DNA of 64,000 nucleotides from a virus. Positions within the stretch are counted from its first letter, which is position 1. Each line of letters starts with the position of its first letter. Made by a program: the position numbers and the translations under genes. This document shows, piece by piece, positions 52,387 through 64,000 of this stretch. Under the pieces are notes generated by a model that worked only from the letters and a program-made list of their open reading frames with translations, was not told the DNA's origin and searched no databases. The DNA is taken from IMG/VR virus record IMGVR_UViG_3300019886_000004, positions 32,001-96,000 of that record, one strand, 5' to 3'.

Positions 52387-52812
52387 TTATCCAGTAGAAC
52401 CAAATGCAGATGCTGCGCGATCGGTGTCTTCCAGTTTTTGAACTTCTTCAAATTCTACTTTCGGTATTGGTATTACTATTAGTTGAGCAACTCTATCTCC
52501 TACTGTATAAGCCTTACTGTTTCTTATATATTTAAAACGAGCTTTAATTTCTCCTCGATATCCTGAATCCACTACTCCAACAGCATTACTCAAAATCATA
52601 CCTGTATTTGAAATCGAAGACCTAGGAAATATTAATCCAACGTGATTTTCTGGTATTTCCAAGGAAATTCCAAAACCATATTCATAGTATCCAAAATCTT
52701 TATTATCAACGACTATCATCGAAGTTGATGTGAGATCCATACCACCATCTCCTTGCTTCTGATACTCTGGAATTTTGGCCGAATCAACCAATTTCTTTAT
52801 TTTTATCTTCAT
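52387..52812 (-). CDS. dut: Trimeric dUTPase
   Basis: GMDL, PRSS, GVVDSGYRGEI, RVAQL and FGSTG motifs. Confidence 0.92.
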   Translation of the reverse strand: MKIKIKKLVDSAKIPEYQKQGDGGMDLTSTSMIVVDNKDFGYYEYGFGISLEIPENHVGLIFPRSSISNTGMILSNAVGVVDSGYRGEIKARFKYIRNSKAYTVGDRVAQLIVIPIPKVEFEEVQKLEDTDRAASAFGSTG

Positions 52813-53476
52813 AGTTTTCGTATATTAGTTTTATGAAGTCTAAGAATTTTCCTCTATCAAAATTGAACTTTATAGTATTGACAGCATGGCAACAAAGAAC
52901 TATATTTGATTTTATGTATCCGATTCTATTATCAACTCTGTCAACACTCACATGTGTTAATTTTGGTTCATTATCAATTGTCATAGGTATATTTGTATAT
53001 TTACATATACCTTTTTGTTCTTTCCATAATTCTATTAAATCAGAAATCTCAATATCAAAATGTATATTTCTTTTTTTCGACATTGATCTCATCCTCTGAA
53101 ATTTCATGGCAAAGAATTTTTCGTCTTTACTATATTTAAATCTTGGATTTTTGCTGTTGTACTCGAATTTACATCCATTACAACAACAAGATGGTCTACC
53201 AAGTTGATCTAAATAAACGTGTCTTTTTTGATAAAAGTCCTTGTTGCAGTTTGCACAATGAACCAAAACTTGTGTATTTTTTCCAACATTGAGAAATTTA
53301 GGTGCACAGTATTTACAGTAACCTGTACCTCTTTTTAAGAAGGTGATACCGTACACCCTCATTTCTTTATTACAATCCAGATTTCTACATTTACAAATAT
53401 AAATCTTTGTTGTCTCAATACACTTCTTAGTTTGCTTTTTTCTAATTTCTATTCTTATAACTTGTGATACTTCCAT
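52784..53476 (-). CDS. Free-standing HNH-type (His-Me finger) endonuclease with Zn-ribbon N-terminus
   Basis: CKYT...SVDRVDNRIGYIKSNIVLCCHAVN, plus several CxxC motifs. Confidence 0.75.
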   Translation of the reverse strand: MEVSQVIRIEIRKKQTKKCIETTKIYICKCRNLDCNKEMRVYGITFLKRGTGYCKYCAPKFLNVGKNTQVLVHCANCNKDFYQKRHVYLDQLGRPSCCCNGCKFEYNSKNPRFKYSKDEKFFAMKFQRMRSMSKKRNIHFDIEISDLIELWKEQKGICKYTNIPMTIDNEPKLTHVSVDRVDNRIGYIKSNIVLCCHAVNTIKFNFDRGKFLDFIKLIYENYEDKNKEIG

Positions 53477-53537: not shown

Positions 53538-54230
53538 TTAACCTTTAACTTCATCTAATTGTTTTTTTTCTGAACATACGAATGTTTCAAGTTTTAGATT
53601 TGGTTTACTACATAATTCTTTTACTTCTTCCAAATCTTGGATCGGAATCCCTAATTCATCTGCAAAAAATTTAAAGCAATTTCCTTCCTCATTTTTTTTA
53701 TCATCAAAATTGGCATCTGGCCAAAGATAACAATAAAGTTTCTTTTGCTCAGTTGGTAATAAAGAAGACCATTTATAGTTTTTTATAATTTGTTTAGCTT
53801 TCTCTGTCATTTGAGAGTATCTACCTTTCATAAAATTACTCCAGTCACTTGTGTAACCAGAAAGATCATATGTATATAGATATTCATCTGGTGATTCATG
53901 AAATCCAACAAACCTTTTATTAGACATTAAAATAGTTTCATATTTTTCCCAACCAGTTTCTTGAATACTTATATTTTTAAAATTGTTATTAATTTGATTA
54001 TAAATATTATCTTGTTTAATCTTATAAATTTTAGAATAAGTAACAATTAATATTTTATCATCAAAACTAATACCATTTGGATAGTCACCACAAACTAGAT
54101 CTGGTGAAGATATATAAGTATTTGTTTCCGTGAAGTATTTATTCTTTATTAACCCAGTCAAAGGTAATAGAAATAGTTTTGACTTTTGTAGGTAACTTTT
54201 TTGCAGTAGAGAAGATTCTTTTTTATTCAT
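53538..54230 (-). CDS. Hypothetical replication-module protein
   Basis: 230 aa (KSKLFLLPL...FMKGRYS). Confidence 0.6.
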   Translation of the reverse strand: MNKKESSLLQKSYLQKSKLFLLPLTGLIKNKYFTETNTYISSPDLVCGDYPNGISFDDKILIVTYSKIYKIKQDNIYNQINNNFKNISIQETGWEKYETILMSNKRFVGFHESPDEYLYTYDLSGYTSDWSNFMKGRYSQMTEKAKQIIKNYKWSSLLPTEQKKLYCYLWPDANFDDKKNEEGNCFKFFADELGIPIQDLEEVKELCSKPNLKLETFVCSEKKQLDEVKG

Positions 54231-54258: not shown

Positions 54259-55611
54259 TTATATTACATATTCGGAAAAACCATAAGGTAAATTAATTGG
54301 TCCATCATTAAATATCAAAGTAGATTCCGTAATTTTATCTTTCAAATTTTTCTTCCATCTTATAAGTGTAGATTTCTTGACTGTGAATCTCATGTAGTTA
54401 TACTCTTTGTCACATACAAACACTCCTGTTATTACATTAATACCCTGCTTTATTTTATCAGAATATTCTTTTTGAACCAATTCATTTATCAATGCTATTT
54501 TTAAAGATAATGGTGAAGATTCAATAACCTCATATATTTCTTTAATATTATCAACAAAAGTGAAAAATTCCAAGAATATTTCTTTATTTCTTACATCTAT
54601 ATATGGTATTGTTTCTTTAAAATAAAAAGGTTCAGAGTATTCAATAGTTTCCTCTATTTTATTATTTAACCTGTTACTTCTATAGTGTAAATTCGAAGGA
54701 TTTATTTTATACTCTTTATCATATAAATTGGATAAGTTATCAAAATATTCCTTTTGTTTTTCTGTTACTACAATTTTCTCTCCTCTTGTTAATAAATATC
54801 TAAAGTATGCGTGATAGTCCTTAGCTTCTTCAATAACTGTTTGCAAAGTCTTACCTTCATATCCAGCAAATTGATATGCTATTTTCTGTAACTCCTCCAT
54901 ATTGTCCAAACCATCGCATTCTAGGATGCTAAGTTGCTTATTTACTAATTCGGATAGTTTTTCTAGATATTTTTTCATTAAAGGAGACTCTGGTTTATCT
55001 GTCTCTATAGTAAATATTTCATCAAATTGACCTGACTGTAATATAGCAGTTTTTATTAAAATATCTATATTACTATCACTAGTAAAAGCAACAGGATCAT
55101 TATAGATTTCCCAAAACTTTCTTCTATTAATTAATGATAAATTAATTAAATATAGATTTAATGGCCTTCTAAAGCTAAAGTTTTTCTCCTTTTTCTCCTT
55201 TTTCTCCTCTACTTTTTCTTTTCTCATTAAATTCTTACCAAAATAATCTTCATGGAAAAGATTTCCATCGCTTGTAAATGGCTCTAAATCATATTCACTG
55301 TCTTGAGCCTCAACATAATTAATAGCTAATCCTTGATGATTACATATCCATGCTCTACCTTCTTTTTTGTCAACTATTCTACAATTGGCTAATTCATCTC
55401 TAGGAATTTTAACATATTCACTAATATCATCTCTTTTGATGACACCCAAAACACCAAGATTATTATGGACTATTAGTAGATTTTCATCCATTACATCAAT
55501 AATCTCAGATCCATCAAAGACTTCTTCAAAGATTTCTTCTTTGATTGAACTACCATCATATGATGGATTTTTTCCTTTTATATATTTTCTAACTGCTGCC
55601 ATTTTCCACAT
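54259..55611 (-). CDS. Hypothetical protein, possibly a degenerate PD-(D/E)XK exonuclease
   Basis: 450 aa. The C-terminal part recalls phage PD-(D/E)XK exonucleases but no D/ExK motif is visible. Confidence 0.4.
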   Translation of the reverse strand: MWKMAAVRKYIKGKNPSYDGSSIKEEIFEEVFDGSEIIDVMDENLLIVHNNLGVLGVIKRDDISEYVKIPRDELANCRIVDKKEGRAWICNHQGLAINYVEAQDSEYDLEPFTSDGNLFHEDYFGKNLMRKEKVEEKKEKKEKNFSFRRPLNLYLINLSLINRRKFWEIYNDPVAFTSDSNIDILIKTAILQSGQFDEIFTIETDKPESPLMKKYLEKLSELVNKQLSILECDGLDNMEELQKIAYQFAGYEGKTLQTVIEEAKDYHAYFRYLLTRGEKIVVTEKQKEYFDNLSNLYDKEYKINPSNLHYRSNRLNNKIEETIEYSEPFYFKETIPYIDVRNKEIFLEFFTFVDNIKEIYEVIESSPLSLKIALINELVQKEYSDKIKQGINVITGVFVCDKEYNYMRFTVKKSTLIRWKKNLKDKITESTLIFNDGPINLPYGFSEYVI

Positions 55612-55960
55612 TTTTTAATACTTCGTAGAAATCTTCTTTTCTCAAAATAACGTAATCACCACACTTAAAAAATCGTGATCCGCGTTTTTCTGTAATTTCA
55701 TGAAAAACAACTAAAGGTTTATCTTTAAGTTTAAATTGCTCAAATATATCTCTATATTTTAGAGGACTAGTATAGCTTTTACATTGTATATGATAAGGAA
55801 ATCTTTTTAAAGATTCTGGAGTGTCAACTATGTCAACATCCATATTATCCATATATCTACTGTAAAGTCTAGATGTACCTACCAAATAACCTAGTTTCAA
55901 GTTATTTATCTCAGTTACAATTTTTCTTTCGTAGTTTGATCCTTTTACCTTGTTAAGCAT
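55589..55960 (-). CDS. Holliday junction resolvase (PD-(D/E)XK type)
   Basis: KGSNYERKI...DIVD...IQCKS...PLVVFH. Confidence 0.75.
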   Translation of the reverse strand: MLNKVKGSNYERKIVTEINNLKLGYLVGTSRLYSRYMDNMDVDIVDTPESLKRFPYHIQCKSYTSPLKYRDIFEQFKLKDKPLVVFHEITEKRGSRFFKCGDYVILRKEDFYEVLKNVENGSS

Positions 55961-56015: not shown

Positions 56016-56573
56016 TTAGACTTGCGTTATCTTCATTTCTTCATCAATATTTAAACTATATGTACTACATGTGTGTTTATAGTTATTTCGTCTATTTTTA
56101 AATGAAGACATTGATTGTAATCCTAGATTTTTAACACATTTAAGTATTATTGGCTGTTCAACATCAGAAATAATGAAATCAACAGAGCTATAATACATTA
56201 TATTACATATTGATTCTACCAGGTTTAAAACCTCTCTAAACATTTGTGTTGATTGTTCTGTGGTAATACTAATGGAATCTAACCCACTATGTATCATTGT
56301 ATAAGAATATATGTCATGAATTATAAGTTTTCCACAACAACTAGGATATTCTACTATGCTGAATCCCAAAATATTATATTCAGACTTAGTTAGTATAGAA
56401 AACGAAACAGGACCTTTGTTACCTATGGTTATCCTACTAATTGGACGAATCATACTATTAAATATATCATCCTCATCAGAATAAATCAAAGATTTTGATC
56501 TAGATACAAGTATTAAGTCTTTTATATTTAATATTTTACTAATATTATTCTTAAAGTCTAATATGCATCCCAT
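56016..56573 (-). CDS. Divergent GNAT-like protein with CCG motif
   Basis: EYPSCCGKLII...EQ...LG...FKN parallels the 57405-57914 product but lacks RxxGxG. Confidence 0.4.
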   Translation of the reverse strand: MGCILDFKNNISKILNIKDLILVSRSKSLIYSDEDDIFNSMIRPISRITIGNKGPVSFSILTKSEYNILGFSIVEYPSCCGKLIIHDIYSYTMIHSGLDSISITTEQSTQMFREVLNLVESICNIMYYSSVDFIISDVEQPIILKCVKNLGLQSMSSFKNRRNNYKHTCSTYSLNIDEEMKITQV

Positions 56574-57424
56574 ACATCTGTAAGTTCTTTTTCCTTAATT
56601 AAGACTAGTATACCAAACTCATCACATATTTTACCAGCAAGTTCTTTATTACTGGAATTAATTGCCTCAACAATATCTATTGACATTTCATTAATCTTAT
56701 CCATTCCATGTTCATTATAATAGTCAAACATTTGATTGATTTGATTAAAAATGTACTCAACATATTCTCTATCTTCAACCCAGAAATTAGAAAGTGTTCT
56801 AGCTTCAAAACCCCTTGATTCACTCCATTCACACAACCTCATTTCTCCAGCCTTACCATATAGTTGTCTCCTTCTTTCATCGCTATCTAAAAATAGGCAA
56901 GGTATTGTCACAAAAGTATCAAAAACTTTCATTAAATCAATGGAATTATTTACATCAGCTCCTTCAAAGCTGAAATGAAGATGACCTCCGCACACCCTCA
57001 AATTAGTATCTAATAGATTACAAGAAGGATTCATTTCTCCATCCAACCAAGCATTATATGAAGGACTACATCCAGCCACCTTTGCTTCTGGATGCTCTAG
57101 TTGATCTTCTGTAAATTCTGCTGAAGGACAACAAGTTATTTTTAACTTTTCTTCCTTGGCATATTTACTTAATATGTAACTCTTAATATACTCAAGATTC
57201 TCCAAAAATTCCTGGCTACCATCTAATTTTACTGGCGGCACATTACATTCTTGTAATACACCATCATACTGTAAGCAACATCCCTTTCTAGGAAGTTGTT
57301 CTGGAAATTTCTTAGTTCCGCTATTAAAGGGTATTGCAGATATAAATTTTCCTTCATCATTAGTTAAAAATAGTTCAAAATCAGAACCTATTAGTACTGT
57401 TTCCTTATTTACTTTCATTTTCAT
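56558..57424 (-). CDS. phiEco32-like COOH.NH2 ligase type 2
   Basis: IGSDFELFL, QYDGVLQECN, GCSPSYNAW, RVCGGHLH, RRQLYGKAG, EARTLSNFW. Confidence 0.9.
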   Translation of the reverse strand: MKMKVNKETVLIGSDFELFLTNDEGKFISAIPFNSGTKKFPEQLPRKGCCLQYDGVLQECNVPPVKLDGSQEFLENLEYIKSYILSKYAKEEKLKITCCPSAEFTEDQLEHPEAKVAGCSPSYNAWLDGEMNPSCNLLDTNLRVCGGHLHFSFEGADVNNSIDLMKVFDTFVTIPCLFLDSDERRRQLYGKAGEMRLCEWSESRGFEARTLSNFWVEDREYVEYIFNQINQMFDYYNEHGMDKINEMSIDIVEAINSSNKELAGKICDEFGILVLIKEKELTDVWDAY

Positions 57425-57914
57425 TCAGATTTAATAGCCAAATATTTAAAGTATTTCCAGTTTTTGCATTAATAAACTCAAGGCTTTTTAACCAACCTTG
57501 TTTTTCAAATATCTTAACTTGATATTCATTATTTTTCTTATCTGCACCTTGCAATACACCATATCCATAATAGGAAGAAAAGTCAGACATGAACTTTGTT
57601 GCAATAGAACCAATTCCTTTATTTCTAAAGTTCTTAGATACAAGAAGATTGCTTCCAACAATTATACCACAACAATTATACATATCTTTTAAATCAAAAG
57701 TAACTATAGTTAATTTATTATAGTCTACTTTAAATATTAAGTTACATTGACCTTTTCCTATTTCTTCAGGATTATATTGATTAAAGAATTCTTCCAGGGT
57801 ATACTGTACCCCGGAAGAATTTTCGTAAACCTTTATTTCAATCTGTTGTTCCTTACATCCTATAATTTTAGATATATCTGTTCTAAACTTGGACTGAATT
57901 TCTTTCGTTTTCAT
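57405..57914 (-). CDS. GNAT-family acyltransferase with CCG motif
   Basis: Acyl-CoA motif A (LVSKNFRNKGIGS) and N..Q..IFEKQGW. Confidence 0.7.
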   Translation of the reverse strand: MKTKEIQSKFRTDISKIIGCKEQQIEIKVYENSSGVQYTLEEFFNQYNPEEIGKGQCNLIFKVDYNKLTIVTFDLKDMYNCCGIIVGSNLLVSKNFRNKGIGSIATKFMSDFSSYYGYGVLQGADKKNNEYQVKIFEKQGWLKSLEFINAKTGNTLNIWLLNLNENESK

Positions 57915-58611
57915 GTTTGTAATTTGGAGACTTTTTTATTAAGTTTGTAATAAGATATCTTGCTAGCAAATTATAGTCTTCCTCTGGATGAAATTGACAA
58001 GCGGCTATCGGAAGAGTTTTATGTTGAAATACTTCTGCAATGTCATCCTTTGCAGTATATGCAATTAATTCTAGTGGCTCAGGTAACTCATCCTTTCTAA
58101 CACCTTGATGGTGAAGTGAACAACATTTCATTTTTTTACTTTTAGAATTCTTTAATAAAGATGTTTCTAATATAGTAAATTTCGGAGTGAATGTAAGATC
58201 ATTAACTAATTCTCCTCTATTTTCGGAATCACTATATCCATGCGTTCCAAGGTCTATATTTTGTATTAGTTTGCCACCAAAATGTACATTAATCATTTGG
58301 AAACCTAAACAGATTCCGAATACTGGTATTCCCGCATCAATATATTTAGGTAAATTAACTTTAGCAAAATGTTCTTTGAATGGATCTGGATCACTATTAA
58401 AATATCCTGGAACAGCCTCATAATTACTTGGTAAAGTATCCTTACCTCCTGGCATTATAATTAAATCTAAATCATTATCAATACCCATTTTTGGAGTTAG
58501 AATTCTAACATCTCCAAACACTTTGAAGAAGTGTAAATAAGATTTTGCTACACCAAAAGATAATTCTCCTTGACTCCAACCCGGTATTCCAATTTTAGGA
58601 ACGTATTTCAT
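57883..58611 (-). CDS. Class I glutamine amidotransferase / peptidase C26-like
   Basis: PGGKD, GICLG, SLHHQ, QFHPE with the Cys-His-Glu triad intact. Confidence 0.88.
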   Translation of the reverse strand: MKYVPKIGIPGWSQGELSFGVAKSYLHFFKVFGDVRILTPKMGIDNDLDLIIMPGGKDTLPSNYEAVPGYFNSDPDPFKEHFAKVNLPKYIDAGIPVFGICLGFQMINVHFGGKLIQNIDLGTHGYSDSENRGELVNDLTFTPKFTILETSLLKNSKSKKMKCCSLHHQGVRKDELPEPLELIAYTAKDDIAEVFQHKTLPIAACQFHPEEDYNLLARYLITNLIKKSPNYKHENERNSVQV

Positions 58612-58629
58612 ATTAATTCATTTAAAATT

Positions 58630-59289
58630 TTATAATTCATTATTAAAAAACTTCACTAAAGTCTTTTTAGTCCAATCCATTACTGGTTCAAATTGACTAG
58701 ATTTATGCATCATTTCCGGATGGAATTGAAACCCGATTGCACTAATTTTAGGAAAATAAATCGACTCAATTTCTTTAAAATTCCAAGGAAGTAAGATTGA
58801 TTTATCCTTTGGACCTAAATATCTATTAGACCTTCTCTTACTACTCCAAGCTAATACTTTATAGTTCCTTGGATCCTTAATTGTATAAGGATTGATCATT
58901 TGATGATGTATACTATTTGTATTTACAGAAACACCATCAAAAGTTGTTATTGTATGGCTGCTTCCACTATGACCACTAACGTCTTGAATCAACTTACCAC
59001 CCGCCATTGCACAAATAAATTGAATACCGCGACATATACCCAGCATCTTCTTACCAAGTTTTATACCTTCCATAAAGTCTTCTTTTTCTATCTTCTCCTT
59101 TTGTGGACTAGTCCAGGTCCTGTCACTTGCTTCTTCTCCATAGGTGCTTGGATCTACATCAGCTCCTCCCCCAAAAATTATTACATCTGCCTCTTCTATA
59201 TTTCTAGTATGTACAAATCCTAAATCCTGTAAGAAATTTCCATTATTTGCTCCACACGCAGACGTGAAATACTTATTTAATTTCTCCAT
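58630..59289 (-). CDS. Second class I glutamine amidotransferase / peptidase C26-like
   Basis: GGGADVDP, GICRG, NSIHHQ, QFHPE. Confidence 0.88.
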   Translation of the reverse strand: MEKLNKYFTSACGANNGNFLQDLGFVHTRNIEEADVIIFGGGADVDPSTYGEEASDRTWTSPQKEKIEKEDFMEGIKLGKKMLGICRGIQFICAMAGGKLIQDVSGHSGSSHTITTFDGVSVNTNSIHHQMINPYTIKDPRNYKVLAWSSKRRSNRYLGPKDKSILLPWNFKEIESIYFPKISAIGFQFHPEMMHKSSQFEPVMDWTKKTLVKFFNNEL

Positions 59290-60094
59290 AAAGTCTTATT
59301 AAGTCGTTTCCTTCTATTCTTTTTTGAAAGTCTGAAATCTTTAAATTTGAATTAAATCTTGTTTGAAATAGTTTTCCAAGATTTCCATCTTTTTGGTTTT
59401 TAATCAACACATCAAACTCTTGCTTACTTAACAATTTACTAATGAAAGTTTCTCTATTTTCAACCCTAAGTAAGGAGAACGTTTCGTTAAATCCATGATT
59501 TCCTGCAAAATAATAGTGAGCCATTTGAAGTAATTCAAAGTCTTCAATCATTTTTGCATTGATACCATTTATAGCTTTTAAATTGACAAATCTACAAAAG
59601 TTCTTAACTACTTGATCATAATGGTCAGAAAATAAATATCTAACCATGCAATAAGCACAATAATTTCTTAATTGATTTTCATGAGAATTTTCTTTTATTT
59701 TTATTTTAAATGCTTCCCATTTATCTTCAATTATAAAACTACCCATGTCTAATTTCAATTCGTTCTCATTTTGCCATCCTTTCACTGATGTAAAATTCGT
59801 TCCAATCTCACTAGAAGTTTTATTACCTAAGTATTTTACTTCGCAAAAGAAATTAGATGTTAAGTCTATCCAATAATTAAAGAAACTTTTATTTCTGGCT
59901 TGCCTTATTAACCAGTCACTTGGATAATAAAATTTAATCTTTCCATTCTTAACCTTGTATTTATCATTGTTTATATCAAAAGTCATTTTAATTATTTGAG
60001 AACAATGTGTTACCATTTTCTTAATTACGATTTGATCGTCATCATCGTAAATTATGAAAAATCCATAACTATTTCTATTATTAATTGTCATCAT
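59273..60094 (-). CDS. Hypothetical protein in the amide-ligase cluster
   Basis: 273 aa, overlapping both neighbours. Confidence 0.6.
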   Translation of the reverse strand: MMTINNRNSYGFFIIYDDDDQIVIKKMVTHCSQIIKMTFDINNDKYKVKNGKIKFYYPSDWLIRQARNKSFFNYWIDLTSNFFCEVKYLGNKTSSEIGTNFTSVKGWQNENELKLDMGSFIIEDKWEAFKIKIKENSHENQLRNYCAYCMVRYLFSDHYDQVVKNFCRFVNLKAINGINAKMIEDFELLQMAHYYFAGNHGFNETFSLLRVENRETFISKLLSKQEFDVLIKNQKDGNLGKLFQTRFNSNLKISDFQKRIEGNDLIRLYGEIK

Positions 60095-61659
60095 TTGATT
60101 TCCATATTATTGTGCTTAAAATTAAAATTAGGATCATCATCAAACCACTTCGATTCAACAGTTTTGTAATTTTTATAAGATCCGTCTTTATTAAAAAATG
60201 TTTCATACCTCATCTTGTAATACTCCATTATATAATTTGTGTACTTTTCTCCTAAATTTTCAAGTAATACCTCTCTTAACGTAATGGACTTTGCAGTTAA
60301 GCAAGTTTTCACATTCTCAGCATATTTAAGAATGGAAGCACAAGTCAACATCCAAATTAATATTTTAGTTGAATTCACACTTCCTTCAGCGCAACGAAAT
60401 TCTAGAGTTCCAATTTTATTAAAATATAAATTTAGAAAATTAACCCAAAAATATCGAGATTCTTTTTGCCACTTCTCACCAGTTATAGCATGATAAACTG
60501 TTTTAGTAGAATAGATATTCTTTAACCACTTATCATAAAACATTTTTTTACCATCTACAACAACACTGGTTCTTATCAATTCCGGATCTCCATGTATAGC
60601 AGCTAAACTTTTTCCATTATTTAACCAAGTATATATTTTATTGAATTCATTGACAACACATTCATGGAATTTTTCCTCTGAATTTTGTTTGAAGATGAGA
60701 TCATATTTTACATCAAGATCACCTAGTGGTTTACAGTATATTTTACCATCTGATTTTATACTATTAAATCTACTATATGGAAAATATTTAACCATTTCAC
60801 CTTGAAGTAAATAACCTAATCTATACATTGATAAAGTAAATAATTTATCTTTTCTGACTTTTCCGAAGTGGAAATGCACTGAACAATAATTATTTACTTC
60901 ACACCTTTTGGTTAGTTCCTTGCAGAACTTTTTAATTACTTCTATACCCTTTGCACCACTCATCGGCATGGTTACCATCTCGATTCCCTCTCCATTATCA
61001 CTCCTTAAAGATCCGTCCTTTAAAGCTTTTATCCCGTACTTATTTCTTATTCTTCTAGGAATAAAACCATTTATGACTTCAGCTTCCATTCCAAAACTAT
61101 AATCACCTACAAACTTAGCTAATCTCTTAGAATCAGCTGATACTTTAATTTCTAGTTTTGCATACACTTCTTCTAACTGTTTCTTTCTTTCAGGATCAGC
61201 TTCTAAGTTATAACTCTTAGATCTCTCAACATTTGGAATATGTTTCTTATTAAACCATTCTTTTATATCTTTATCAGTTATAAAAGACTTTTCATAAAAT
61301 ATTCCATCATAAATAGATTCAATGAATGAAAGCTTTTCTGCTAGTTCTTCATTTAATATATATATAAAGGAACCTATTCTTTTATCCTTAGCTGTCACGT
61401 ATAAATCATTATCGCAAAACCAACCCTCTTCCCCATTCTCATTTATAATACCCTTAATTAATGCAGTATTTGCTTTCAGCACATATTTTTTAGAATAGTT
61501 ATCATAAATTATTTTATCAGTGGATGTAATTCTATACCATTGATCGTCTTCCATTTTAAAACAAGCCTCATTTTCCTTGTAATACTTATCAAGTATTTTA
61601 TGAGCGCTATCTTTTGGTATTAGATTACCTAAATAATCCTTTACAAGTTTCTTGCTCAT
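60091..61659 (-). CDS. Putative amidoligase (glutamine synthetase/GCS-like fold)
   Basis: FGMEAEV, KDGSL, GIEMVT, CSVHFH, TLEFR. Confidence 0.85.
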   Translation of the reverse strand: MSKKLVKDYLGNLIPKDSAHKILDKYYKENEACFKMEDDQWYRITSTDKIIYDNYSKKYVLKANTALIKGIINENGEEGWFCDNDLYVTAKDKRIGSFIYILNEELAEKLSFIESIYDGIFYEKSFITDKDIKEWFNKKHIPNVERSKSYNLEADPERKKQLEEVYAKLEIKVSADSKRLAKFVGDYSFGMEAEVINGFIPRRIRNKYGIKALKDGSLRSDNGEGIEMVTMPMSGAKGIEVIKKFCKELTKRCEVNNYCSVHFHFGKVRKDKLFTLSMYRLGYLLQGEMVKYFPYSRFNSIKSDGKIYCKPLGDLDVKYDLIFKQNSEEKFHECVVNEFNKIYTWLNNGKSLAAIHGDPELIRTSVVVDGKKMFYDKWLKNIYSTKTVYHAITGEKWQKESRYFWVNFLNLYFNKIGTLEFRCAEGSVNSTKILIWMLTCASILKYAENVKTCLTAKSITLREVLLENLGEKYTNYIMEYYKMRYETFFNKDGSYKNYKTVESKWFDDDPNFNFKHNNMEIK

Positions 61660-61673
61660 TGATTTTAATTTAA

Positions 61674-64000
61674 TTATTGTAGTATCTTACTGATATACAT
61701 TATACTTCCTGCTAAAGATACATTTAATTTATTAAATCTTTCAGTCCTTAAATTTGTCTCAGTCTTATCCATTCTGCCTTTGATTTCTTTAACTGATTCA
61801 AGTAACTCTTCTAATTCGGATAGAAAAGATGACTCATAATATTCAGCATCTAATACTTCTGCTTCTGGTTCTACTACAATCTCTTTGGAATTTTCTCTTA
61901 CACATTCATTTTCACTAATCTGTAAGTCACCACAATCTCTCATAAAATTATGCCATTCTCTATATGTAGAATGTGCTTTTGCAGAAAGATCTTTTGGATC
62001 AGACTCAAGTGCATATAATAGTTCACTTTTACTTATTCTTTCTACAGTATTTAAAGATAGTAAAACCGCCTCATAGAAATCATATAATTCTTTATCTGAA
62101 TTATTAACAACCCATGAAGTTTTTAAGTCATCTAATATCTCTTCTTTAGCCTCATGAATGTCATTTGCAAAATTAGGACTCTTATAAAGAATATTACAAC
62201 ACTTTATACTATTTATTATATCATCTTCTGTAAATATATTCTGATTCTGTTCATGTATTTGTATCTTTTCCTTAGTAGTTAAATCAGTACTTATGTGCAT
62301 ATTGTGATTTGTCATATTGGATATGTCTTCATCTTTTACTTTTGTTTTAATCAATGAGGTTATTTTCTCCATATCCTTTAGGAACTGCTTACCACTAAAC
62401 ATACTTACTTCAGCTTCTTTTCTTAGATCTTTAAGCATTACTTTACTTACAACAAGGTAATTTAAACCTATTCTCATAATTAATTCAAAGAAATATTTCT
62501 TTAATGAATCACTAGTATTCACTCTCCATAAATCTCTTCTAGTAATCGTATAATAGTAATTAGGATTGTCAGATTCTTCAGTCTTAAACTTATCTATTAA
62601 CCAAGCTCTTGTTGTAACTTCAGATTCAATAGAAGTTAAATCATCATTATCAGCATCCACAGAGACTTCTTTCTTTCTAAATCCTATATTATCACATATT
62701 ACTTTTTTAGTGATTTTTGTCCATTTACATCTAAATATTAATTTAAATTCTTCATCAGATAAAAACGGGGAAAAGCTAAGAGTATCTCCTCTTTTCTTAA
62801 GAGAAGAAGTATAATGATTATCTAATATCCAACCTTCTTCTTCATCTATAAGAGTTAATACCGGATAACTAAAAAACTCTACAAATTCAGATACACGAAT
62901 AGATTTAAACTTATCAAGACTAAATTTATCATGTTGGTCTTTAACTCTTTCAAAAACAGTATCATATGCTTTCTCAGATAAACATTTATAGCCACAAATA
63001 AAGAACATTGGTTCCATGTTAAGTTTTACTGCTTCCAGTTCACTTTTCATTTTACCAATATCAGTTATAAAGTTTTTACCTTCCAAAGGATGACCATTTC
63101 TGTAATACCTTTCATTTATAGTGTACACTTTATTACCTCTATTGTCATGGTTTTTACTTTCATTTGGTCTATTCTTTATAAGTATAACTTCATCTTTTTT
63201 GGATGTCATTTCTATAAATGACTCTCCTCCTTGATTCTGCCATGTTTCATAGTCTGTATTGTAGTGTTTTCCTTTTTTATAACCTATTCTATTTCCTATC
63301 GGGTATGTCACTATAGGTTTAAGAGGTTTTCTATCAACTATCTTATCATAAGTAATTTTACCTTCTACTATCTTGTATAAAAAGTTAGGTTTGAAATATT
63401 TAAGTTCATTTTGTGCTGCTCCTATTGCAAGTAATGGTTCTTCCATTGATGATATATACATTTGATCCGGAGCAATATTCCAAAGATATAATGGACGATC
63501 TGGATCTTTATATATCATCAATGTATTTTTTTCCAGTGGATGAAAGAATGCTAACGTTGCCCATCCATCATAAAGCTCCAGCGCTTCACGATAATTCTCT
63601 TCACCCAGTTTAACCATAGCTTTAGCCAACATTTGAGTGTCAGAATTGGTATTAGTTTTAAATTCTATATCCCATCTGTTAGCTAATAGTTCTGTATTAG
63701 ATAAGGTTCCATTCATTGCAAGAATTAAGTCATAGTCTTCTTTTTCTGTGTCATTTTCATAAATACCAAAAGGATGAGCTAATTCTTTTGAATATCTTAA
63801 CCCAGAACTTGCCTTTCTAGCATGTGCAACAATGGTGAAATTATCATCTTCTGGAGTTATAATTAAAGGATTTTTTTGTATAAATTTCATTACTTTTTCT
63901 GTATCCTTAATTATTTTATTGTTTACTGCCCATCCAGTACTATCTTCACCTCTTTCTTGATTATACATCATAATCATCTTTATCTTGTCTGGGTCAGCAG
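61674..64000 (-). CDS. Class II (Ntn) glutamine amidotransferase with long C-terminal extension (5'-partial)
   Basis: Frame is open to the window edge (...ADPDKIKMIMMYNQERGEDSTG). Motifs HARKAS, AHPF, MNGTL, SDT. The catalytic N-terminal Cys would lie outside the window. Confidence 0.85.
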   Translation of the reverse strand, partial: ADPDKIKMIMMYNQERGEDSTGWAVNNKIIKDTEKVMKFIQKNPLIITPEDDNFTIVAHARKASSGLRYSKELAHPFGIYENDTEKEDYDLILAMNGTLSNTELLANRWDIEFKTNTNSDTQMLAKAMVKLGEENYREALELYDGWATLAFFHPLEKNTLMIYKDPDRPLYLWNIAPDQMYISSMEEPLLAIGAAQNELKYFKPNFLYKIVEGKITYDKIVDRKPLKPIVTYPIGNRIGYKKGKHYNTDYETWQNQGGESFIEMTSKKDEVILIKNRPNESKNHDNRGNKVYTINERYYRNGHPLEGKNFITDIGKMKSELEAVKLNMEPMFFICGYKCLSEKAYDTVFERVKDQHDKFSLDKFKSIRVSEFVEFFSYPVLTLIDEEEGWILDNHYTSSLKKRGDTLSFSPFLSDEEFKLIFRCKWTKITKKVICDNIGFRKKEVSVDADNDDLTSIESEVTTRAWLIDKFKTEESDNPNYYYTITRRDLWRVNTSDSLKKYFFELIMRIGLNYLVVSKVMLKDLRKEAEVSMFSGKQFLKDMEKITSLIKTKVKDEDISNMTNHNMHISTDLTTKEKIQIHEQNQNIFTEDDIINSIKCCNILYKSPNFANDIHEAKEEILDDLKTSWVVNNSDKELYDFYEAVLLSLNTVERISKSELLYALESDPKDLSAKAHSTYREWHNFMRDCGDLQISENECVRENSKEIVVEPEAEVLDAEYYESSFLSELEELLESVKEIKGRMDKTETNLRTERFNKLNVSLAGSIMYISKILQ

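Follow-up and report, generated by a model that had tools for sequence, protein, structure and literature searches.

Gene cassettes that encode amidoligases together with glutamine amidotransferases (GATases) were reportedly predicted from genomes by Iyer, Abhiman, Burroughs and Aravind in 2009 (Mol Biosyst), and the Pfam family of their signature ligase, PF14395, is named after phage phiEco32. As that work is related in PMC10580990, the cassette of phiEco32 was proposed to modify the cell wall against superinfection, with its functions still to be explored. In 2014, the annotation of the LUZ24-like phage UFV-P2 listed these enzymes next to primase and helicase genes (PMC3890496), and on some viral contigs amidoligase and amidotransferase genes of unknown function lie near thymidine-hypermodification genes (PMC8989533). 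In the literature searched, no paper was found that reports a product of the cassette or treats it in crAss-like phages. The operon analysed here lies at the end of a 64,000-nucleotide stretch (the window) that covers bases 32001 to 96000 of the IMG/VR record IMGVR_UViG_3300019886_000004, a single viral contig of 147,916 bp with a CheckV completeness of 100%. We read this operon, with a probability of roughly 0.6, as an enlarged copy of the phiEco32/LUZ24-type amidoligase cassette that would build and trim amide bonds derived from glutamate and glutamine.

Eight open reading frames (ORFs) occupy window positions 56016 to 64000, all on the minus strand, which carries the window's genes from 46 kb on. 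Neighbouring genes overlap by 4-32 nt or are separated by gaps of 14-20 nt, in agreement with the tight, co-oriented packing described in an earlier note on this DNA. Five of the eight proteins, whose families that note had also named, score above the Pfam gathering thresholds: a class II GATase, an Amidoligase_2 protein, two C26/class I GATases and a COOH-NH2 ligase type 2. The PHROGs assignments are concordant with these calls. The block extends about 2.5 kb past the window end on the same strand and with overlapping genes; upstream of the class II GATase follow a 240-aa protein, a RimK-like ATP-grasp ligase, a GGACT/AIG2 gamma-glutamyl cyclotransferase, a 116-aa ORF and the primase. The whole operon is thus about 10.2 kb long and contains 11 genes, or 12 if the poorly conserved 116-aa ORF is counted, and the eight-gene set is its larger part. 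Judged from their sequences, its products comprise three ATP-dependent amide-bond ligases (the RimK-like ATP-grasp protein, the COOH-NH2 ligase type 2 and Amidoligase_2) and three enzymes predicted to cleave glutamine or gamma-glutamyl amides (the class II GATase with its N-terminal nucleophile (Ntn) fold and the two C26/class I GATases), with the gamma-glutamyl cyclotransferase and two GNAT-like proteins completing a set that is inherited as one unit. The two ligases and three glutaminase or hydrolase domains counted in the earlier note are all present, and the region beyond the window adds the third ligase, an ATP-grasp protein that the note had suspected there, and the cyclotransferase. The operon belongs to the replication arm of a 148-kb crAss-like phage and is flanked by the primase gene and a resolvase-like gene. 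The label 'crAss-like' is supported by protein similarity, at large evolutionary distance: for a 2000-aa protein of the window, RNA-polymerase-associated giant proteins from Cellulophaga phage phi14:2 and from gut Crassvirales are the sole matches, and the best annotated match of the COOH-NH2 ligase is likewise a Crassvirales genome. The description of the locus as a phiEco32-type multi-enzyme amide-bond cluster in such a phage is supported. In cultured phages, blastn of the region gave no DNA match, the similarity being confined to the protein level.

The co-inheritance of these genes was surveyed with ORFs called in 87 fetched loci, all of which carry the COOH-NH2 ligase, since this gene was the query (87/87), and with iterated profiles seeded from the window proteins. 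The class II GATase and Amidoligase_2 were each recovered in 81 of the 87 loci, C26 in 79, the ATP-grasp ligase in 76 and the cyclotransferase in 40. All five core genes occur together in 65 loci, and most of the remaining loci are cut by contig ends; the co-occurrence in relatives on which the idea of a pathway hinges is thus borne out. Accessory genes are rarer: the family of the 169-aa GNAT-like protein was detected in 23-26 loci, that of the 240-aa protein in 11, that of the 185-aa protein in 7-9 and that of the 273-aa protein in 2, and a second C26 gene is present in 22 loci. The gene order of the window is kept in relatives with a ligase identity of 45-57% and also in locus L002 (41%), where it reads primase, cyclotransferase, ATP-grasp, 240-aa protein (not in all), class II GATase of 773-881 aa, Amidoligase_2, 273-aa protein (not in all), C26, C26, GNAT-like protein, COOH-NH2 ligase and 185-aa protein, while more distant contigs and the Crassvirales genome cr108_1 have the same enzymes in a different order. 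Two or more GATase-type genes are found in 70 of the 72 loci that have both glutamine synthetase-like (GS-like) ligases, the class II GATase and the ATP-grasp ligase, and six of the eight loci that lack C26 have a second Ntn paralogue. A minimum of two glutaminase-type enzymes thus seems to be needed, with class I and class II enzymes apparently replacing each other; such an exchange of folds suggests a common substrate, which would be glutamine or a gamma-glutamyl amide.

The cassette is by no means restricted to this lineage. A tblastn search recovered the COOH-NH2 ligase in 308 of 50,697 cultured-phage records, mostly from Pseudomonas phages (LUZ24-like and PA11-like) and Escherichia phages (phiEco32-like), and a pattern scan of IMG/VR found it on at least 565 contigs. 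Together with the 2009 prediction (cited in PMC10580990), the naming of PF14395 for phiEco32 and the annotation of these genes in cr108_1, this abundance speaks against the earlier view of the locus as a candidate for an undescribed system. The term 'expanded', also used for it, is justified relative to the LUZ24-type content, but the expansion is not peculiar to the window, as the counts for the second C26 and the GNAT-like genes illustrate; it is common to many crAss-like lineages.

Among the ligases, Amidoligase_2 (60091..61659, minus strand; 522 aa) is a predicted GS-like ATP-dependent carboxylate-amine ligase that matches PF12224 with 32 bits (cut-off 22) and phrog_2443 'amidoligase' with an E-value of 1e-22. 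Its gene lies 14 nt from that of the class II GATase, and this adjacency is nearly universal: in the survey of 82 amidoligase genes, a class II GATase was the immediate upstream neighbour in 50 instances and the immediate downstream neighbour in 36. The signature gene of phiEco32-type cassettes, the COOH-NH2 ligase type 2 (56558..57424, minus strand; 288 aa), matches PF14395 with 39.7 bits (cut-off 25) and phrog_3815 with an E-value of 5e-52, and its product holds all 23 residues that are invariant in 31 aligned sequences. A large protein collection contains 175 homologues, many of them from contigs of 80-150 kb; no fused forms of this ligase (551-2000 aa) were found, which is weak evidence, and a profile search of the PDB gave only chance-level rows (E 0.25 and 0.65). 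Beyond the window, where coordinates refer to locus L001, the RimK-like ATP-grasp ligase (L001:3876-4766, minus strand) matches the RimK-type phrog_2599 with an E-value of 2.5e-17, whereas its Pfam ATP-grasp score of 18.4 stays below the cut-off of 27, and a sequence search against solved structures gave no match. Asp247 and Glu267 of this protein are invariant in 77 homologues, and the metal ligands other than that at residue 269 do not vary. The adjoining cyclotransferase scores 42.2 bits against GGACT (cut-off 22.8) and has a Y-G-S-L motif.

The class II GATase (61674..64000, minus strand) is cut by the window end. Its domain is clear (GATase_6 with 45.8 bits against a cut-off of 27, GATase_7 also above its cut-off), and both gene and domain had been recognized correctly from the window; the gene is not complete there, however, because its start and the codon for the catalytic Cys36 lie past base 64000, the latter by 29 nt. 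The full frame encodes 820 aa, the start of the longest frame being at the extrapolated window coordinate 64136. A hydrophobic leader (residues 1-35) is followed by Cys36, where the canonical class II N-terminus (Cys-Gly-Ile...) begins, by the Ntn domain (36-270), by a beta-rich domain (about 335-480) and by a clade-specific helical tail. The Ntn and beta-rich domains are common to all orthologues; in the window clade they are supplemented by some 240 residues of helical structure and a coiled tail. Residues C36, G37, R107, N142-G143 and D166 are invariant across 26 orthologues, and both the catalytic Cys and the glutamine-binding Arg, Asn-Gly and Asp of class II enzymes are present. The modelled Ntn domain matches GlmS, GFAT, PurF and EgtC (Foldseek E about 1e-10), the glutaminase domain of GlmS with a template modelling (TM) score of 0.73 on the target. 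The C-terminal 408 residues, folded alone, reached a mean confidence (pLDDT) of 83, and Foldseek with this model gave nothing below E 0.1; no fold match was obtained for the beta-rich domain, which this search of the C-terminal fold barely probed. A winged-helix assignment for the C-terminus, suggested by many winged-helix rows of VIA-align (model residues 168-279), was dropped, as the best Z of 5.6 is under the noise level of the tool.

The leader of this enzyme is about 35 residues long in the window phage (L001:3029-3136, minus strand; extrapolated window coordinates 64029-64136), and a structure model predicts a single helix for residues 2-25. Leaders of this kind, with 26-33 residues before the Cys, occur in 27 of about 80 orthologues and follow a common pattern of a hydrophobic stretch, basic residues and then x-Leu-x-Cys, while 53 orthologues start with Met-Cys. 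A lipobox was considered and rejected, the residue before the Cys often being Phe or Tyr. Since the codon preceding Cys36 is AGC, which is unusable as a start, and Cys36 would have to be freed, the leader would need to be removed; its simplest reading would thus be a pro-segment, by analogy with PurF of Bacillus. It looks transmembrane-like and may tether the pro-enzyme to the membrane.

Both C26 proteins have an intact Cys-His-Glu triad, with the G-x-C-x-G nucleophile elbow and H-P-E aligned to those of solved GATases, as had been noted from the letters alone. C26a (58630..59289, minus strand; 219 aa; motifs GICRG and FHPE, aligned to PDB 3fij) scores 61.9 bits against Peptidase_C26 (cut-off 20.5) and 39.6 bits against GATase. 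C26b (57883..58611, minus strand; 242 aa; motifs GICLG and FHPE) reaches 92.6 bits (same cut-off) and 66.8 bits, respectively, and its sequence matches in the PDB include the glutaminase subunits GuaA, TrpG, CarA and PabA. In a midpoint-rooted FastTree of 99 proteins, whose support values were not inspected, C26a clusters with the canonical C26 genes that immediately precede the COOH-NH2 ligase gene in all lineages, and would be their orthologue. C26b falls into a separate deep clade with C26 genes located upstream of the ATP-grasp ligase in other crAss-like contigs. This separation into two deep clades argues for an old duplication rather than a local one. In three relatives (L006:5675-7227, also L024 and L076), C26 is present as two pieces of about 100 aa around an ORF of 200-250 aa on the opposite strand, with a NUMOD1 gene nearby, an arrangement that looks like an intron or homing-endonuclease insertion.

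The remaining genes of the operon are less well defined. The 169-aa protein (57405..57914, minus strand), which contains Cys-Cys-Gly and R-N-K-G-I-G motifs, is by itself under the Pfam cut-off (Acetyltransf_7, E 0.019, 15.7 bits against 27). The PDB matches of its family profile, built from a 15-member alignment, are all acetyltransferases (best E 0.0077), 7 of the 15 members match Acetyltransf_1 (best E 1.9e-5), and one orthologue bears a weak Acetyltransf_1 mark in a precomputed table. Its R-N-K-G-I-G-S sequence fits the R/Q-x-x-G-x-G/A acyl-CoA motif and lies inside the stretch aligned to the acetyltransferase 2eui. A GNAT-like nature of this protein is therefore supported by sequence at the level of the family only. 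The 185-aa protein (56016..56573, minus strand), which had been called a second GNAT-like protein, proved to be a diverged paralogue of the 169-aa protein (hhalign probability 97.5%, E 6.4e-12) that keeps the Cys-Cys-Gly and C-terminal Asn signatures, but in the hhalign alignment it has no R-x-x-G-x-G motif at the corresponding position, and it is unlikely to bind CoA in the usual manner. It has no Pfam match, and its family profile no match in the PDB. A third Cys-Cys-Gly GNAT-like paralogue of 178 aa is encoded 12 kb from the cassette (L001:15385-15921, minus strand; genome 108385-108921; phmmer E 4e-15 against the 169-aa protein), and distant copies are also found in L002, L005 and L006.

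The 273-aa accessory protein (59273..60094, minus strand) is specific to the clade, with orthologues only in L002 and L003, and matches nothing in Pfam, PHROGs or the ESM Atlas. The 240-aa protein beyond the window (L001:3157-3879, minus strand; extrapolated window coordinates 64157-64879) has no Pfam or PDB match and no usable match in the ESM Atlas (poor model, TM at most 0.35). It belongs to a family with 2,387 cluster representatives at an E-value of at most 0.001, some members of which are tandem duplications of 420-570 aa, and near-invariant Cys-x-Asp, Trp, Ser and His-x-x-x-Gly positions suggest a thiol-type enzyme. The 116-aa ORF ends with Gly-Gln. It was considered as a Pup-like tag and discarded, because it has no match in the 87 loci and has no C-terminal motif in common with the small ORFs found in the corresponding place in relatives.

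If these assignments are correct, the ligases would activate carboxylates with ATP and then join them to amines or to ammonia, and the glutaminase-type enzymes could be involved in either of two ways. The class II GATase with Amidoligase_2, and C26 with the COOH-NH2 ligase, may form pairs that amidate two carboxylates with glutamine-derived ammonia in a MurT/GatD-like manner; the strict gene adjacencies and the likeness of C26b to the GuaA, TrpG and CarA subunits favour this model. Alternatively, the GS-like ligases might form gamma-glutamyl-amine bonds from which the glutamyl group, serving as a carrier or protecting group, would be stripped again by the C26, Ntn and cyclotransferase enzymes, as in the PuuA/PuuD, EgtA/EgtC and BtrJ/BtrG pairs. 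This second model is favoured by the presence of the cyclotransferase and by C26a, whose only match among solved structures is the C26-family chain 3fij. The cyclotransferase would free 5-oxoproline from a gamma-glutamyl-amine intermediate, the GNAT-like proteins may add or transfer an acyl or aminoacyl group, and the Ntn enzyme of the window clade would be made with its hydrophobic leader of about 35 residues, which would have to be cut away to free Cys36. The net product could be a small molecule with amide linkages derived from glutamate or glutamine, or a tag on a macromolecule in the infected cell. Of the possible targets, a small molecule is slightly preferred to an envelope precursor and a protein, in this order; DNA is ranked lowest, given that neither a ThyA-like hydroxymethylase nor a TGT/DpdA enzyme was found in the genome.

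Several observations weigh against a pathway that builds and trims glutamate- and glutamine-derived amides. The two models just outlined are about equally likely and are not separated by the sequence data, and the literature searched holds no biochemistry for any member of the cassette. C26a resembles, among solved structures, only the C26-family protein 3fij (Lin1909), the function of which is unassigned, while C26b additionally resembles true glutaminase subunits. At residue 269 of the ATP-grasp ligase, Glu-x-Cys replaces the Glu-x-Asn metal motif that is present in 64 of the 77 homologues, the same replacement being found in 12 others. The 185-aa GNAT-like paralogue, which lacks the CoA-binding motif, may be inactive. 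Moreover, two distant members of the 240-aa family lie on short phage-like contigs on which no cassette genes are visible, and both the 240-aa and the 273-aa proteins may stand outside the pathway.

Among the alternatives, an action of the cassette on the cell envelope would be closest to the published suggestion for phiEco32 (Iyer et al., 2009, as reported in PMC10580990). The enzymes would then amidate or extend peptidoglycan or a lipid-linked precursor at the inner face of the membrane, as MurT/GatD does on lipid II, and block superinfection or tune lysis. The transmembrane-like leader and the basic residues in the GATase of the window clade and in 26 other orthologues would place the enzyme at the membrane, but the 53 leaderless orthologues among about 80 indicate that membrane tethering is not general, and a leader cut for activation would lose the tether. 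Pfam scans detected no Mur-ligase-like gene in or near the cassette, which furthermore sits with replication genes and not with lysis genes. On balance, we consider an envelope target unlikely, although it ranks among the stronger competitors. The same low standing is assigned to protein tagging, in which proteins of the host or the phage would receive a glutamate or a short peptide in a RimK- or pupylation-like manner, with the hydrolases and the cyclotransferase maturing or removing the tag. The Pup ligase PafA belongs to the GS-like ligases, and epsilon-(gamma-glutamyl)-lysine is a substrate of GGACT-type enzymes; these precedents and the RimK-type phrog_2599 assignment of the ATP-grasp ligase (E 2.5e-17) speak for the idea. 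However, no conserved small tag protein was found, the 116-aa ORF being the only small ORF in the block, nor were any fused ligase-substrate forms. A more specific combination of these ideas appears rather doubtful, more so than either of them: a transmembrane-tethered Ntn pro-enzyme would cleave itself at Cys36 and, together with the two C26 classes and the Cys-Cys-Gly GNAT-like transferases, install an amide derived from glutamate or glutamine on an envelope precursor, a protein, or DNA without 5-hydroxymethyldeoxyuridine (5-hmdU). If true, this membrane-primed pathway would be a phage-directed modification of a kind not yet described.

A hypermodification of DNA or nucleotides, in which an amide side chain derived from an amino acid is placed on a base as protection against restriction, is improbable to a greater degree. 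In most lineages the cassette lies among primase, helicase, dUTPase and ribonucleotide reductase genes, and the co-location of amidoligase and amidotransferase genes with thymidine-hypermodification genes on some viral contigs (PMC8989533) would also be in line with such a role. The complete genome, however, has no match to a ThyA-like hydroxymethylase (PF00303) or to TGT/DpdA, and both searches were positive in control genomes. Tet_JBP (PF12851) gave no match either, but this search is uninformative, as it matched no control genome; no enzyme that could be the source of 5-hmdU was found, the 5-hmdU kinase and aGPT-type pyrophosphorylase families not having been searched for. Least credible of all is the notion that the genes are independent auxiliary metabolic genes merely co-located in a permissive region. 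It could account for the variable accessory content (the 273-aa protein in 2 loci, the 240-aa protein in 11 and the GNAT-like protein in 23-26) and for the homing endonucleases inserted in and around the block in relatives, but it is at odds with the five core genes, which occur together in 65 of 87 loci from unrelated phage types and keep their adjacencies, and with the overlapping or nearly abutting genes of the window.

With respect to its surroundings, the cassette is bounded downstream by a gene outside of it that encodes a 123-aa candidate resolvase of the RusA-like or PD-(D/E)XK-like type (55589..55960, minus strand; phrog_244 'RusA-like Holliday junction resolvase', E 4e-7; weak PDDEXK_15 match). 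Past this gene follow a gene without an assigned family, an HNH endonuclease, dUTPase and ribonucleotide reductase. The free-standing HNH endonuclease (52784-53476, minus strand; phrog_3322, E 3e-22) is situated between the downstream neighbours of the cassette and the dUTPase gene, and profiles made from it and from the adjacent 230-aa protein (53538-54230) have matches in 33 of the 87 loci, in ORFs whose positions vary. Terminator-like sites are not enriched in the region (2 seen, 2.8 expected from shuffled sequence), and promoter-like sites are not above the level of shuffled sequence. Both results agree with a single transcription unit without proving one. On the 5' side of the cassette, the sole strong hairpin is a perfect 9-bp inverted repeat with a 5-nt loop (L001:6507-6529) in the 57-nt gap upstream of the primase gene.

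The amidoligase cassette is among the most widespread enzyme sets of tailed phages that have remained without an assigned product since the 2009 prediction. In the window it forms a stable component of the replication arm of a deep crAss-like lineage. The features new to this clade are the second, anciently diverged C26 class, the two Cys-Cys-Gly GNAT-like paralogues and the 820-aa GATase with its hydrophobic pro-segment. The apparent requirement for two glutaminases and the subset of GATases with the pro-segment are concrete handles for experiments, and the cultured carriers LUZ24 and phiEco32 are better suited than the uncultured window phage for resolving what the cassette makes.

Compared with the phiEco32/LUZ24 cassette, the operon shares the COOH-NH2 ligase type 2, Amidoligase_2, class II GATase, RimK-like ATP-grasp and AIG2/GGCT genes, in most lineages also C26, and the placement beside primase and helicase genes. 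It differs in gene order and in possessing the second C26 class, the two GNAT-like paralogues and the 240-aa and 273-aa extras, and its GATase has 820 aa and a hydrophobic leader in contrast to the enzymes of about 430-550 aa there. In the LUZ24-like phage UFV-P2, the window-derived profiles for C26 and the GNAT-like proteins gave no match. The ligase has its best annotated counterpart, with 38% identity over 91% of the length, in cr108_1 (MT774385), a gut Crassvirales member of the Steigviridae, where the order is primase, ATP-grasp, amidotransferase, COOH-NH2 ligase, GATase, a 486-aa protein, ribonucleotide reductase and dUTPase; the profile survey classed the 486-aa protein as Amidoligase_2. 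Unlike the window phage, cr108_1 possesses a single C26 gene, lacks GNAT-like genes and encodes a GATase of 492 aa beginning with Met-Cys.

Beyond phages, the closest parallels lie in the logic of gamma-glutamyl chemistry. In the Puu pathway of E. coli, the GS-like gamma-glutamyl-putrescine synthetase PuuA is paired with PuuD, a gamma-glutamyl hydrolase of the C26 family. The pairing of a GS-like ligase with a C26 enzyme in the cassette resembles this and supports the model of a gamma-glutamyl group that is first attached and later taken off, although oxidase or dehydrogenase partners are missing from the cassette. EgtC, the Ntn-fold gamma-glutamyl amidohydrolase of the ergothioneine EgtA/EgtC pair, is one of the structural matches of the GATase domain. 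In butirosin biosynthesis, BtrJ and BtrG add and remove a gamma-glutamyl protecting group, and the cassette likewise pairs an ATP-grasp protein with a gamma-glutamyl cyclotransferase. Unlike in these two systems, no EgtB/EgtD or carrier-protein genes are present here, and the likeness is one of logic only. The adjacencies between the class II GATase and Amidoligase_2 and between C26 and its ligase recall MurT/GatD-type amidotransferases, in which a glutaminase gene also adjoins that of an ATP-dependent carboxylate-amidating ligase, but the ligases of the cassette have the GS-like and not the Mur-ligase fold. Finally, PurF of Bacillus subtilis is a class II GATase whose non-hydrophobic N-terminal propeptide of 11 residues is removed to expose the catalytic Cys. 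The GATase of the window phage, with PurF among the structural matches of its domain, likewise appears to have an N-terminal propeptide, which differs from that of PurF in being longer (26-35 residues in the orthologues with a leader) and transmembrane-like.

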